Shown in pieces: positions 13,905 to 19,396 of a stretch of DNA of 63,663 bases. The stretch is taken from contig JBDRRP010000057.1 of assembly GCA_043825735.1 (NCBI GenBank), positions 124,001 to 187,663 of the forward strand. Reading direction: 5' to 3'. The stretch comes from Pseudomonadota bacterium (GTDB lineage: Bacteria; Desulfobacterota; Desulfobacteria; Desulfobacterales; JBDRRP01). Numbering within the stretch: the stretch's first letter is position 1; every line of letters begins with the position of its first letter. Position numbers and translations under genes: made by a program. The notes below the pieces were generated by a model. That model made no database searches. It was not told the origin of the DNA and was given only the letters and a program-made list of their open reading frames with translations.

Positions 13905-14207
13905 GGCCAGCACTTCTCCCAAGGGGGCCCTTATCTGCGTTCACCCGGCAGGGGCCGGGCGAACCATTGCGGTTCGTTTGACGATGCGATATCGGCACAC
14001 CGTTTCACCGGCGCGGCGGCTCTGGTGAAACGTCGCGAAGAATATACGCACCGCCGGCGCCAGTGCAAGTCGTTTCCTGCAGCCGCGGGACGTGGGTGCC
14101 GGGCGCGGCGTCTTGACAATCCCGGTCTGCGGGAATAGGTTTGCCTGCATTCACGGCTGCCCTGCAGCCGAGCGCGTGGTTTTTACCCCTTGCAGCGAGA
14201 ACGGCAC

Positions 14208-14732
14208 ATGCCGCCGGTCATTGCCATCGTCGGGCATTCCGACGCCGGAAAAACGACACTCATCGAGAAACTGCTCCCGGAGCTCTCCCGGCGGGGGTAC
14301 CGTGTGGCTACGGTAAAACACGCCCACCACGGTTTTCAGATGGATAAACCCGGCAAGGACAGCTGGCGCCATCAGGCCGCAGGGGCGGCCACCGTCATCC
14401 TCATCGGTCCCGAGCAGGTGGCCGTCGTGAAATCCCAGCCCGGTGCTTCGCTGGAGGACGCACTGCCGTTTGCCGGAGACTGCGATCTGGTCATCGTTGA
14501 GGGATTCAAAAAAGCGGCCGTACCCAAGATCGAGGTCTTTCGCAGCGGCACCCGTCCGGCGCCCATCTGTCTGGATGACCCGCATCTTGCCGCGCTGGTC
14601 ACCGACGCGGCCATCGCATCGCTTTCCATCCCCGTGATCGGCCTAGATGACATTGCCCGCCTGGCCGATGTCATCGCCGCCCGTTTGTTCGGCCCCCTTG
14701 CCATCGGCAAGGAGCGCGCCGACGGGTGTTAA
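14208..14732 (+). CDS. mobB: Molybdopterin-guanine dinucleotide biosynthesis protein B
   Basis: GHSDAGKTTLIE, VATVKHAHH, DKPGKDSWRH and VEGFK motifs. Confidence 0.92.
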   Translation: MPPVIAIVGHSDAGKTTLIEKLLPELSRRGYRVATVKHAHHGFQMDKPGKDSWRHQAAGAATVILIGPEQVAVVKSQPGASLEDALPFAGDCDLVIVEGFKKAAVPKIEVFRSGTRPAPICLDDPHLAALVTDAAIASLSIPVIGLDDIARLADVIAARLFGPLAIGKERADGC

Positions 14733-14826
14733 GGCGTCTTTTGTAACCGACCTTCCTTGCCGGGCTCTTTATCAAAAAGCAGTGGACAATTTTCCATTTC
14801 GGGGCATATACCCCACCGGAGGAAAC

Positions 14827-14991
14827 ATGAACGAAATGTTGCTGTTTCTCATCGTTATCGGCGTTTGGTTCCTGCTGCAGGCCGTGATCCTGCCGCGTCT
14901 GGGTGTACCCACTTGAATGAGCGACGCCTGCCAGGTGGCGGGCAAGAAGGAAGATGATTCCGGAACAGAGCCCAAGGACCGTCACGGATGA
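14827..14991 (+). CDS. Putative small membrane selenoprotein, 54 aa (Sec30); 29 aa if the UGA is a stop
   Basis: RBS GGAGGA, ATG 14827, MNEMLLFLIVIGVWFLLQAVILPRLGVPT, TGA 14914-16, then in-frame MSDACQVAGKKEDDSGTEPKDRHG*. Hairpin GCCTGCC-AGGT-GGCGGGC at 14926-14943. Confidence 0.65.
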
Positions 14992-15568
14992 AGATGCTGA
15001 AGTGATCCGGGCCATCAACGATGGCCGCCCGGATCGCTTTCAGGAGATTGTGCAGCGCTATGAAGGCCGGCTGTACAATTTCGGTTTGAAAATGTGCGGG
15101 CACGTCCAGGATGCGGAAGACCTCGTGCAGGAGACCTTCCTCAATGCCTTTCGCTACATGGGCGGCTTCCGCTTTGAAACCAAGTTCAGGAACTGGCTTT
15201 ACCGGGTGGCCACCAGCGTCTGCCTCAAAAAACGGCGGCGCTCCAAGTTTGCCCCGGAAAAAGAGCTTTCCCTGGAAGAATTTCTTCCCGCCGAGGGAGA
15301 ATCCCCACCGGATGCGGTGCCGGAGTGGGCGGCCCAGCCGCTGGATCAGCTGCTCACCAGCGAACTCTCGAAGGTGATTCGGGATGCTATCGTCGATTTG
15401 CCCGAGAGCTACCGCCTGGTGGTGGTGCTTCGGGACCTGGAGGGATTTTCCACCGAGGAGACGGCGCAGATGCTGAGTCTGACGCCGACCAATGTCAAGG
15501 TCAGGCTCCACCGGGGCCGACTGTTTCTCCGGGAAAAGCTGAAAGGATATTTTCTCGATGCCCCATGA
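14954..15568 (+). CDS. ECF (sigma-70 family) RNA polymerase sigma factor
   Basis: DAEDLVQETFL, FRNWLYRVA and region 4 EGFSTEETAQML..NVKVRLHRGR. Confidence 0.93.
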   Translation: MIPEQSPRTVTDEDAEVIRAINDGRPDRFQEIVQRYEGRLYNFGLKMCGHVQDAEDLVQETFLNAFRYMGGFRFETKFRNWLYRVATSVCLKKRRRSKFAPEKELSLEEFLPAEGESPPDAVPEWAAQPLDQLLTSELSKVIRDAIVDLPESYRLVVVLRDLEGFSTEETAQMLSLTPTNVKVRLHRGRLFLREKLKGYFLDAP

Positions 15569-15821
15569 CCATCATTCCCGCGAAGACTGCGTGGCCCTGT
15601 TCGATAAACTTTCAGCCTATCTCGACAACGAACTGGACGCGGCCACCTGTGCTGAAATCCGGGCCCATGCGGAGGGCTGCGTTGCCTGCAAGGCCTGCAT
15701 CGACACCCTCAAGCAGACCGTTGCCCTGTGCCACGGTCTCAAGGCCGAGAGGCCCTCTCCTGAATTTTCCCGACAGCTCAAGACCCTCATCGCTCAGATG
15801 ACCCGCTCGGCCCGATCCTGA
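15558..15821 (+). CDS. Soluble zinc-finger (zf-HC2) anti-sigma factor
   Basis: C..LSAYLDNELD..C..HAEGCVAC (HxxxCxxC); overlaps the end of the sigma gene; no TM. Confidence 0.88.
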   Translation: MPHDHHSREDCVALFDKLSAYLDNELDAATCAEIRAHAEGCVACKACIDTLKQTVALCHGLKAERPSPEFSRQLKTLIAQMTRSARS

Positions 15822-15915: not shown

Positions 15916-17139
15916 TTACAGCGCTGCAAACGGCAGTGCCGTCACCCCGGAACCCAGGGGCAGGCGGATATCGCCGGGATGGACGACGTAACCGGGTTGG
16001 ACCCGCGTGCCGTAATCTTCCCGAAATTTTCGGATGGCGCCGGCCATGGCCGGGCGCGGCGTTGCGGAAAGCTTCACCTCGATGGGGATCAGTCGGCCAT
16101 CGGTGTCGATGACGATGTCCACTTCCGTTCCTGTGGCGGTCCGCCAGAAATACACCTGGGGATCGATACCAGTATGCGTCAGGGTTTTATAGATTTCGGA
16201 AAGCACGGCCGTTTCCATGATCGTGCCGCCCATTGGGCCAGCGGCCGCATGGCGGGGATCTTTAAGACCGGTCAGGTAGCATAGCGTTCCCACATCGGTG
16301 AAATAGGCCTTGGGCGTCTTGACGAGCCGCTTGCCCACGTTGGCAAAGTAGGGCCTGAGCACAATGACCTGATAGGTGGCCTCCAGGACGGAAAGCCAGG
16401 CCTTGATCGTGTTGACGGCCACACCGATATCACGGGCCAGTTCGGTGAGGCTGAGCAGCTGCGCGCTGCGCGCTGCCAGGGCTCTGAGAAAAATCTGGAA
16501 CTGGGACAGATCGCCCACCTGTCGCAGGGTGCGGACATCGCGCTCAAGGTAGGTCTGGACATATCCGGCATGCCACAGTGAGGCATCCCGCTGTGGATTG
16601 GAAACAAGCTCGGGATAGCTTCCCCTCAGAAATCCCTTCCAGATATCAGCCTGCGAAGCTGTTGATGCGTCCCGAAGCGATTCGCCGGGCATCCAGGGCA
16701 GCGGCGCCAGAGGGCACCCCTCGGCCTCCCGGCGTGAGAAGGGCAGCAGGCGCAGCATCGCCACGCGTCCGGCCAGCGACTCGGTGATTTTTTCCACCAG
16801 CAGGAGGTTCTGGGGGCCTGTGAGGAGGTACTGTCCGGCCTGGTTCCGATCCGCGTCGATTTTTTCCTTGATATAGGGCAACAGATCGGGTGCGTGCTGC
16901 ACTTCATCAAAAATCACCGGCGGCGGGTGCATATCGAGAAAACCACGGGGGTCTTCATTTGCGGCCACCCGGACGTCCGGAGGCTCAAGAGACACATAGC
17001 CGTACTGCTGACTAAAGAGCTCCCGCAGGAGTGTTGTTTTCCCCGATTGACGGGGACCTGTCAGGACCACGGCGGGAAACTCACGGGCAGCTTTCTTGAG
17101 AACCGGTTCCAAGGATCTTTGGATATAATTTTTTATCAT
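15916..17139 (-). CDS. AAA_14 ATPase with DUF4143 domain
   Basis: GPRQSGKTT, FDEVQ, ESLAGR, KRLVKTPK and YFWR..EVD..IEVK motifs. Confidence 0.9.
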   Translation of the reverse strand: MIKNYIQRSLEPVLKKAAREFPAVVLTGPRQSGKTTLLRELFSQQYGYVSLEPPDVRVAANEDPRGFLDMHPPPVIFDEVQHAPDLLPYIKEKIDADRNQAGQYLLTGPQNLLLVEKITESLAGRVAMLRLLPFSRREAEGCPLAPLPWMPGESLRDASTASQADIWKGFLRGSYPELVSNPQRDASLWHAGYVQTYLERDVRTLRQVGDLSQFQIFLRALAARSAQLLSLTELARDIGVAVNTIKAWLSVLEATYQVIVLRPYFANVGKRLVKTPKAYFTDVGTLCYLTGLKDPRHAAAGPMGGTIMETAVLSEIYKTLTHTGIDPQVYFWRTATGTEVDIVIDTDGRLIPIEVKLSATPRPAMAGAIRKFREDYGTRVQPGYVVHPGDIRLPLGSGVTALPFAAL

Positions 17140-17593
17140 GGCGGTATCTGCAATTATGCATTGCAAATGCAAAATTGCAAGGCAAAAATCGGCAAGCCAT
17201 ATATAAACGCTGACGATCGATATTGATTTGAGTGAGGCCCGGACCGGTTTTCTGGAGGTGCTTTCGGTGAGGAAATCAAGCGTTTCTTAGCATGCGGTAT
17301 TTCCGGCCCTTGCCGGCGCAGGGCATGTTCTGATCTTCGGCGCCGGAGCAGAGATGCCGATTCCGTCGGAGGAAGCTGAAAACATCCAGTCTAATCGGCC
17401 GCTTCCCCGCCCCGGCGCCCCCTCCGGCGCGCCGCCCCTCCCCGGGAACCAGAATTGTGGATTCCGCTTTTCTCAAGAAAATATACTATATCTATAAATT
17501 ACAATGACATACGACCATGGCCCATAAGTTGCTATGTCCATGATGCCGAACCGCACCGGTTTGCCGGTGTGTTCTGAAACGAGGATGCACCCC

Positions 17594-19396
17594 ATGATAC
17601 CGGCACCGATTCGCAAAAAGGTCGCCCTGCTGGCCGTGGCCAGTATCACCGCCGTACTGATGACCGCCGTCGCCGTATTGCCGTGGTTTGCCGGGCTGAG
17701 GCAGTCCACCTTCCCGGGCCTCGCTCTGAAACTCGGGCTCGATCTCCAGGGCGGACTGCACCTGGTCCTCAAGGTCGACCTGAACCGCGCCGTTCAAAAC
17801 CAGCTGGAAAGAAGTGTCGATGATCTCGGTGACGCGCTGAAAAGCGCGCAGCTTTACTGGCAGCGAACGGCGCCCGTCGGAGAAAACGCGCGGCGTCTGT
17901 ATTATGCCACGCGGGCTACCGCGGACGCCGCCCTTGAAAAGATACACGCCGGCTATCCTTACCTCAGCGCCGCCATCGCGGCCGCCGAAGATGCCGGTGC
18001 GGCCATCGACGTGAGCCTATCCCCAAAAGAAGCCGCCGCCATTGAAGACCGGGCCGTGGTCCAGACGCTGGAAGTCATGCGCAACCGCATCGATCAGTTC
18101 GGTGTGGCCGAACCCCTCATCGTGCGCCAGGGACGCGATGAAATCGTGATCCAGTTGCCGGGGCTCGCGGATACCTCGCGGGCCATGGCCCTGATCGGCA
18201 AGACCGCCCAACTGGAATTCAAGCTCGTGGCCGCCGAACAGCCCGGCGCCCTGGCCCAGTGGGTCAGCCGGATCGCCGCCGGTGGTAAAGGCGGCACCAT
18301 CGGGCACCGGGAGCTCAACGCCGCGCTCAAGGACCGGATTCCGGTCGGCACCGAAGTGTATTTGAACCGCGACGACGGCCGGACCACCGGCGACGCGGCG
18401 CCTCGCCCGATCCTGGTCAACAGCCACGTCCTGATGACCGGGGCCTATATCCGCACCGCCCAGGTGGGTTTTGACGACCGGTTCAACACACCATCGGTCC
18501 ATCTGGACTTCAACAGCGCCGGCGCCCGGCTCTTCGAGCGCATCACCACCGAACACACGGGAAGCCGGCTGGCCATCATTCTCGACGATGTCGTCCACTC
18601 GGCGCCGCTCATCCAGGAGTCGATCGCCGGCGGCAAGGCCCGCATCACCGGCGCGTTCACGGCAGAGGAAGCCAGCGACCTGGCGATTGTCCTGCGGGCC
18701 GGCGCTCTGCCCGCACCCGTGCGGATCGTCCAGAATCTCACCGTGGGGCCGTCCCTCGGGCAGGACTCCATCAACCAGGGCATCAACGCCTCGGTGCTGG
18801 GCACCGCGCTGGTCATCGGGTTTATGCTGATGGTGTATCGCCGGTCGGGGATGATCGCCAACATTGCCCTAGTGCTCAATGTGGTCTTCATGCTCGCGGC
18901 TATGGCCCTGATGAAGGCGACGCTTTCCCTGCCGGGGATCGCCGGCATCGTGCTGTCCATCGGCATGAGAAAAGCCGCCTTTTTGTGTTCCGGTGTGCTT
19001 GTCGCCGGCGGTATCCTCGCCCTGGTCCAGATCCAGCGGGGACGGGCCAATCTGGGCGGCTACTCGCTGACCGACACCGTGGTGGTGTTCGACCGCATCC
19101 GTGAAAACATGCGTCATAAGGATGCGCGGGAAATGGGGCCTCTTATCGACCGCAGCATCAACGAAGTGATGGGACGAACCATCATGACCTCGGCAACCGT
19201 CTTCCTGGTCCTGGCGGCCCTGCTGGCCGCCGGCGGTCCCTTGCTGAGGGATTTTGCCTTTGCCCTAATGGTGGGTGTCGTCGTCGGCACCTACTCCTCC
19301 ATTTTCGTTGCCGCCCCGATCGTTTACGTCTGGCCGCGCAGCGCGCGCCGGCAGGCGGCCCGGCGGCATCGGCGTAAACCGGCGGGTGCCCAGTGA
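17594..19396 (+). pseudogene. secDF: Fused SecD-SecF with two in-frame internal deletions (open frame, function doubtful)
   Basis: LGLDLQGG, RNRIDQFGVAEP, LRAGALP and GPSLG (SecD). SIGM joins directly to SecF TM1 (RKAAFLCS..RANLG), which joins directly to GYSLTDTVVVFDRIRE. Confidence 0.75.

Follow-up and report, generated by a model that had tools for sequence, protein, structure and literature searches.

A short gene at 14827–14991 of the window (the whole stretch analysed here, 63,663 nucleotides of a Desulfobacterota genome) almost certainly encodes a 54-residue, single-pass inner-membrane selenoprotein, one of a family that was predicted earlier and never characterised. The selenoprotein itself is thus no discovery; what is worth following is the breadth of the family, the thiol- and persulfide-related neighbourhoods of its Cys orthologues and a cross-phylum promoter link to ECF sigma factors and zinc-binding anti-sigma (ZAS) proteins. 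Our best reading as a whole, to which we assign a probability of roughly 0.55, is that of a membrane-anchored thiol/persulfide redox effector of an ECF/ZAS regulon. It draws computational support from the coding signal, the exchange of Sec for Cys, covariation in the SECIS element, dependence on the Sec machinery, the neighbouring genes and a promoter-like motif.

The open reading frame starts at the ATG at 14827, runs for 29 codons to a TGA at 14914–14916 and then continues in frame for 24 codons to a second TGA at 14989–14991 (Table 1). A sequence-only reading of this DNA had described the ribosome-binding site, the 29-codon one-helix frame, the TGA at 14914 and the continuation to 14991, and these coordinates proved exact. 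Most of the 31 copies inspected have, ahead of the start codon, a purine-rich stretch that resembles a Shine-Dalgarno sequence.

Table 1 Features of the peptide locus and its neighbours, in positions of the window.
Feature	Position	Strand	Basis
mobB, upstream neighbour, outside the reach of the putative promoter	14190..14732	+	TIGR00176
Putative ECF-type promoter, TGTAACC (14742-14748)-N14-GGCTC (14763-14767)	14742..14767	+	Enrichment in sigma-linked loci, which suggests the function
Shine-Dalgarno GGAGG of the peptide gene	14818..14822	+	Sequence
Gene for the 54-aa single-pass membrane selenoprotein (Sec30, Cys35, charged disordered tail)	14827..14991	+	
Transmembrane helix, residues 2-24, probably N-out/C-in	14830..14898	+	AlphaFold2; positive-inside rule
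In-frame UGA, Sec30	14914..14916	+	TGA in 73 of 74 loci
bSECIS hairpin containing the Cys35 codon (14929-14931)	14926..14943	+	Folding, covariation, published model
Purine-rich Shine-Dalgarno-like stretch and sigma ATG, behind the SECIS, within the read-through tail	14944..14956	+	
ECF sigma factor, 204 aa	14954..15568	+	PF04542, PF08281 and TIGR02937 above cut-off
Soluble zinc-binding anti-sigma (ZAS), 87 aa, H-x3-C-x2-C, 6 Cys	15558..15821	+	PF13490 above cut-off

Read through the UGA, the peptide was compared with 61 genomes, namely the host and 60 others from the same order; 50 of them match, and all 53 matches carry one internal TGA. Profile matches extend to 138 of 301 genomes sampled across the phylum. 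From these we assembled 74 Sec loci in three sets: the 30 highest-ranking of the 53 order-level matches; 26 of the top 30 at phylum level, four repeats being dropped; and 18 weak matches out of 20 picked by hand, the other two (L079 and L080) having been left out because they could not be anchored. Codon 30 is TGA in 73 of the 74 and TAA in one weak match, and beyond the UGA both Cys35 and Gln36 are invariant in the 31 order-level copies.

The hairpin at 14926–14943 has seven pairs (one G-U) and an AGGT loop that lies 16 nt after the UGA with G at its second position, at −14.3 kcal/mol. In PMC13188914, the bSECIS model is given as a loop of 3–9 nt, a stem of 4–16 bp, G in the first two loop positions, a spacing of 16–37 nt and an energy of at most −7.5, and the hairpin satisfies all four constraints of that model with its 4-nt loop and 7-bp stem, its G at the second loop position, its spacing of 16 nt and its energy of −14.3. 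A loop G placed 15–25 nt downstream in such a hairpin occurs in 67 of the 74 Sec loci; among Cys loci it is found in 8 of 34, and among control stops, the ordinary TGA ends of long frames, in 52 of 400. Across the 31 order-level copies, 89% of cells are paired compared with 32–64% in slid controls, and two-sided changes fall in 16 cells versus 4.8 in shuffles, a count that kinship inflates; distant families have a hairpin of different sequence at similar spacing. The SECIS-like geometry that had been proposed from the letters is therefore borne out by energy, recurrence and covariation.

Cysteine replaces selenocysteine elsewhere in the family. Among 63 library representatives, position 30 is Cys in 33, Trp in 17, Gly in 3 and Ser in 1, and nine proteins end there; the Trp and Gly residues presumably reflect UGA translated under other genetic codes. 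In the public gene calls (P0013–P0075), the peptide gene seems to provoke the wrong choice of genetic code on short contigs. We also collected 34 genomic loci of the Cys form, all with TGC or TGT at codon 30 (the search pattern required Cys), which record titles place in Deltaproteobacteria/Myxococcales/Polyangia, Planctomycetota, Acidobacteriota, Omnitrophota, Nitrospirota and unnamed bacteria; selA is present in 12 of these 34 genomes.

The host genome encodes SelA, two SelB, two SelD with an internal TGA and two tRNA-Sec, and the window itself holds, on the minus strand, a Sec-type fdhA (UGA at 1909), the gene from which a Sec-decoding host had correctly been deduced. The SelB, SelD and tRNA-Sec pairs (contigs C88, C107 and C73 of the host assembly, G000) may reflect duplication or contamination, which stands at 3.69% for the assembly. 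In the phylum sample, selA is found in 282 of the 301 genomes, and the six gene-positive genomes with no selA match all have SelB and a tRNA-Sec that scores 70 bits or higher; the peptide gene is absent from 10 of the 10 genomes in this sample that lack selA, SelB and tRNA-Sec. A generic scan of the host genome for selenoprotein motifs returned mostly noise, its credible entries being the two selD genes, fdhA, a hesB-like and an mvhD-like gene. Separately, behind a gene for an AhpF-domain/thioredoxin-reductase fusion (L136:3111-4427, G000:C144), an Fe-S oxidoreductase-like frame stops at a TGA and a later open reading frame resumes the same frame, which is probably another selenoprotein.

These results bear on the simplest alternative, by which the UGA is a plain stop that leaves a 29-residue membrane peptide, and an RNA element or re-initiation of a mini-peptide would account for the downstream conservation. 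An ATG directly follows the UGA in most copies, gene callers terminate the protein there, TAA occurs in one weak match and third positions are more constrained after the UGA than before (entropy 0.86 versus 1.45), but we judge a plain stop extremely improbable given that TGA has hardly drifted to TAA or TAG (73 of 74), that Cys orthologues retain the same Met and the Cys at +5, that Cys35 persists where the hairpin has moved away (see below) and that the 10 Sec-negative genomes lack the gene. On these genomic grounds, selenium would be incorporated in vivo at codon 30. The 54-residue membrane selenopeptide of the sequence-only reading thus finds its homologues with TGA or Cys at position 30, together with conservation after the UGA, covariation and synteny with a sigma gene.

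That reading had labelled the motif UxxxxC, which describes the common form and is not universal. The next Cys lies at +5 from Sec in 54 of the 74 loci, at +6 in 3 and elsewhere in 12, and there is none in 5. Because Cys35 is invariant in the alignment of Cys forms (C-x4-C) and persists in 14 Sec loci with a hairpin loop at least 19 nt downstream, the SECIS element alone does not explain its presence. Since 17 of the 74 loci have no Cys at +5 or +6, an intramolecular Sec30–Cys35 pair is not general; Sec30/Cys30 is the constant residue and Cys35 is dispensable. The gene directly upstream of some Cys forms (L081–L086 and L088; L092, L093 and L096) encodes another small Cys-bearing membrane protein, of which there are two kinds: one has a C-x2-G-x-CPI motif, and the other is YgaP-like with an NFCP motif.

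AlphaFold2 models the peptide as a single helix over residues 2–24, with a pLDDT of about 90 for residues 1–20 and of 52–59 beyond residue 30, and its best 19-residue segment has a hydropathy of 2.81. Over the 74 loci, Lys and Arg average 0.6 on the N-terminal side of the helix and 4.2 on the C-terminal side, an asymmetry that, by the positive-inside rule, suggests an N-out/C-in orientation and hence a cytoplasmic Sec. The tail behind the hairpin varies in sequence and in length (11–43 residues). The peptide, one helix and one reactive residue, is about the smallest selenoprotein possible. A tblastn search found no paralogue in the host genome (best other E value 0.36) and a plasmid search gave no match. 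Two copies in tandem, each with its TGA and hairpin, precede the sigma gene in another genome (L004:1276-1662, G044), and L080 and weak matches in family f77 (G075, G115, G148 and G178) represent a second, divergent copy, which in L080 has additional residues, including a Cys, before the stop. Contigs of relatives in one sediment metatranscriptome (0.07 share) span 14818–15027, carrying neither strand nor level information and possibly originating from DNA, and were given no weight.

Neither Pfam nor NCBIfam matched any of 47 family members. Matches below cut-off to Pfam DMAC1/Dmo2 (3 of 47 members, best E value 0.004) and to a Pfam arabinan-synthesis family (5 of 47) were taken as hydrophobic noise, and the ESM Atlas offered only an unnamed cluster of 123 members (score 0.91). 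The family, which the sequence-only reading did not recognise, has no model in Pfam or NCBIfam and had been predicted before. Compared by eye with 6 entries of Data S1 and 14 GOS entries of the earlier prediction, the peptide agrees in length, within a range of 50–70 residues, in its N-terminal helix, in LP[KR][LM]G[IV]xT-U-[ML]-x3-C and in a short charged tail. Those files hold sequences only, and the accessible text gives no function, topology, gene context or promoter; the family is missing from the predicting paper's Table S1, and also from the 119-family table of a 2026 review. The deep-Sep families DW and DF are other proteins, and DG is excluded by its listed motif and NCBIfam model only. 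Neither a function nor a gene context for the family turned up in the accessible text of PMC13188914, PMC12013277, PMC2398784, PMC13326102, PMC9312934, PMC7826278 and PMC1976440, and OS_HP1 and OS_HP2 of PMC1976440, or the supplements, could bear on novelty.

The sigma gene that starts inside the read-through tail carries Sigma70_r2 and Sigma70_r4_2 domains. Its neighbour matches zf-HC2 (PF13490) at 39.9 bits against a cut-off of 22.2, has Cys and His residues that are invariant in 21 aligned homologues and shows no hydrophobic stretch by inspection, in agreement with the earlier description of an ECF sigma factor followed by a Cys-rich anti-sigma devoid of a transmembrane segment. A sigma gene lies downstream in 21 of the 74 Sec loci (19 of the best 30 at order level), with an anti-sigma in 20, and a zf-HC2 anti-sigma lies upstream in 10 of the 34 Cys loci, all of Planctomycetota; in most of these 10 a sigma gene was not found nearby. 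Counted at peptide loci, linkage to sigma or anti-sigma is thus partial rather than obligate (21 of 74 Sec, 10 of 34 Cys). On the upstream side, mobB is present in 11 of 30 loci at order level, and a Tat-exported 4Fe-4S protein together with a membrane protein in 13–14 of the 74 Sec loci; in many Sec loci the neighbours are unrelated housekeeping genes. The 4Fe-4S pair is joined to the peptide operon in other genomes and lies on a separate contig in the host, where it consists of a Tat-type 4Fe-4S protein (HybA/HmcB-like, below cut-offs) and a 166-residue membrane protein with no Pfam or NCBIfam family, behind the same promoter motif (L135:756-2232, G000:C22).

Around the Cys forms, 17 of 34 loci lie within about 2 kb of genes for thioredoxin, DsbD/CcdA, CoA-disulfide-reductase-rhodanese, MBL-rhodanese/TauE or SQR-like proteins, by Pfam labels assigned to representatives and extended by cluster; one locus falls both in this set and among the 10 linked to an anti-sigma. 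In L110, the order thioredoxin, anti-sigma, peptide, thioredoxin and a fused anti-sigma/sigma gene stands behind the promoter motif. Further along the window, an AAA_14/DUF4143 ATPase gene at 15916–17172 on the minus strand is convergent with the anti-sigma gene, and a 620-residue frame at 17534–19396 is followed by another; we take the former, by inspection, to resemble SecD running into the end of SecF with the middle apparently missing, and the latter to be TatC-like.

A promoter-like motif connects these loci. It was discovered by enrichment among sigma-linked loci, and its first pattern occurs in 8 of 21 sigma-linked loci and in none of the 53 other Sec loci or the 34 Cys loci; a promoter scan with a spacer of 15–16 missed the window's own site. 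A relaxed pattern on wider loci finds it in 16 of the 21 sigma-linked Sec loci (one of the five misses was examined to 1.5 kb only), and in operons that begin with the 4Fe-4S gene it sits ahead of that gene. The anti-sigma–peptide pair of Planctomycetota is preceded by the same −35 and, at equal distance, by a −10 of the GCATC type, and the relaxed motif occurs in 10 of 10 ZAS-linked Cys loci, 0 of 24 unlinked Cys loci and 3 of 53 unlinked Sec loci, with antisense controls at 2 of 34, 2 of 21 and 6 of 53. Because the patterns were built from linked loci, the positive counts are partly circular and the negatives carry the weight; related loci are, moreover, not independent.

Genome-wide, five planctomycete genomes have 14 sites compared to 0 in the control. 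Four of these lie at the anti-sigma–peptide pair by construction, others precede genes for thioredoxin (two), DsbD, YeeE/YedE, a YgaP-type membrane domain and an FmdB-type ribbon, and the remainder comprise one probably within a secretin gene and three with no clear target. Fifteen relatives of the host have 13 sites versus 4 in the control, ahead of the peptide (3), the 4Fe-4S gene (3), a rhodanese (1), a DUF4405 protein (1), a methyltransferase (1) and no clear target (4). The host genome itself is not enriched in GTAACC-N14/15-GG[CT]TC (9 sites versus 11 in the reversed control); three of its sites have a leading T, a feature picked afterwards, and these precede the peptide, the 4Fe-4S operon and the AhpF-domain/thioredoxin-reductase fusion, the last a link seen in the host only and not among the 13 sites of the relatives. 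ECF sigma factors commonly regulate their own genes, and on this basis the motif would be the promoter of this sigma factor. A sigma-70 promoter scan gave 0 sites; TGGACA-N18-TATACC at 14783–14812, just upstream of the ribosome-binding site, is a weak sigma-70-like site that the scan did not score, and TGGACA is found upstream in 11 of the 21 sigma-linked loci. The GTAAC motif does not occur in the accessible text of PMC7826278.

For the redox effector that we favour, we infer the topology, the inducing signal and the chemistry of the peptide as follows. SelB acting on the SECIS within the frame would insert Sec at codon 30, just behind the helix and probably on the cytoplasmic side, where Sec30, usually with Cys35, would form an exposed reactive centre outside any thioredoxin fold. 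The peptide may work at the membrane surface by capturing oxidant or sulfane sulfur, with Cys35 or the thiol of a partner joining Sec30 in a selenenylsulfide or persulfide, and thioredoxin-type systems would re-reduce it. In the host order, the peptide gene would head an autoregulated operon with the ECF sigma and ZAS genes, so that oxidation of the zinc anti-sigma would induce the peptide; some lineages may likewise induce it through an oxidation-sensing ZAS/ECF pair, and others may use different regulators, as ArsR-type genes nearby would suggest.

The peptide could instead be a membrane co-sensor that controls the release of sigma by direct exchange between its own Sec or Cys centre and the zinc thiolates of the soluble anti-sigma, a relay that the sequence-only reading had also proposed and that we consider unlikely. 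The adjacency on which that proposal stood is real: a zf-HC2 anti-sigma is a neighbour in two phyla in different gene order (sigma and ZAS downstream in 21 of 74 Sec loci, ZAS upstream in 10 of 34 Cys loci), it has six Cys and no membrane anchor, and a C-in topology would place both partners on the same side. Against this, no such neighbour exists within the locus stretch examined in 53 of 74 Sec and 24 of 34 Cys loci, a common promoter accounts for the linkage equally well with no need of contact, and RsrA-type anti-sigmas sense disulfide stress unaided. A complex prediction for a Planctomycetota Cys-form peptide (residues 1–48) with its neighbouring anti-sigma scored 0.00 against a mark of 0.32, controls not having been folded, and so speaks on neither side of the question of binding. 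With linkage partial (21 of 74, 10 of 34) and Cys35 dispensable, a dedicated anti-sigma relay is thus a minority reading. Extended to its full scope, and just as unlikely in our view, a tethered Sec/Cys sensor would pass membrane thiol/polysulfide oxidation to the zinc anti-sigma in a three-part ECF system that reaches from Desulfobacterota (Sec) to Planctomycetota (Cys), with UGA and SECIS tying sigma synthesis to selenium in the host order. The word 'sigma' has 0 occurrences in both selenoprotein reviews, and the catalogues consulted list no selenoprotein in sigma-factor signalling.

We find it quite improbable that the peptide is a membrane-anchored ligand for soft metals (Cu, Hg, Zn or As), with Sec or Cys as the ligand, or the small subunit of a membrane complex. 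Genes for RND efflux (CusB/HlyD) follow the ZAS–peptide pair in several Planctomycetota loci, ArsR regulators lie near other loci and some tails have extra Cys, but neighbours and promoter targets include more thiol and persulfide enzymes than metal genes; the 4Fe-4S and membrane protein genes that precede the peptide in 13–14 of 74 Sec loci would fit a complex subunit, but in the host that pair is on another contig with its own copy of the motif.

Selenium-sensing translational coupling, in which the output of the sigma gene would depend on events at the UGA (decoding, stalling or termination) and on SelB bound to the hairpin, appears very improbable as the main function and at best a secondary feature in one order. 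The sigma ATG lies at +40 from the UGA in 16 of 21 linked loci, 20 of the 21 have it in the +1 frame, and the tail behind the hairpin is variable, but such fixed spacing could reflect common descent of overlapping frames, the Shine-Dalgarno stretch is mostly outside the hairpin, the next frame is on the opposite strand in 25 of the 53 loci with no sigma, and Cys forms retain C-x4-C where there is no UGA. The varied neighbours and that opposite-strand gene, along with residues conserved in the Cys forms, likewise argue against a mere leader peptide or attenuator.

The peptide has counterparts among known systems. With the bacterial thioredoxin-fold selenoproteins (UxxC, CxxU) it shares Sec/Cys exchange, a bSECIS within the frame and a nearby second Cys; unlike them, it has no folded redox domain but a single helix and a disordered tail, with x4 spacing and a dispensable second Cys, and neither its one helix nor the searches of Pfam and NCBIfam place it among them. 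SigR–RsrA and SigH–RshA are disulfide-stress ECF systems of Actinobacteria, and the system described here resembles them in pairing an ECF sigma with a soluble zf-HC2 anti-sigma, in apparent autoregulation and in thioredoxin-type genes behind the motif. Orthology to SigR–RsrA is not indicated (TIGR03988 at 32.3 bits against a cut-off of 62.5), the motif differs from the SigR consensus, and we know of no small membrane selenoprotein in those operons. Eukaryotic SELENOK and SELENOS are selenoproteins that also cross the membrane once and carry Sec in a cytoplasmic tail that is disordered; the likeness is one of analogy only, as no sequence homology was found and the Sec of the peptide lies five residues behind the helix rather than at the C terminus.

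The family is present in 138 of the 301 genomes of the phylum sample, yet gene callers cut it at 29 residues or read its UGA as Trp or Gly; it lacks an HMM and has dropped out of current catalogues. The conserved promoter motif, which also marks thioredoxin, DsbD and sulfur-transport genes, and the link to the anti-sigma together offer a first function that can be tested, and the evidence points to an ECF regulon of thiol/persulfide stress, common to sulfate reducers and planctomycetes, with named target genes.
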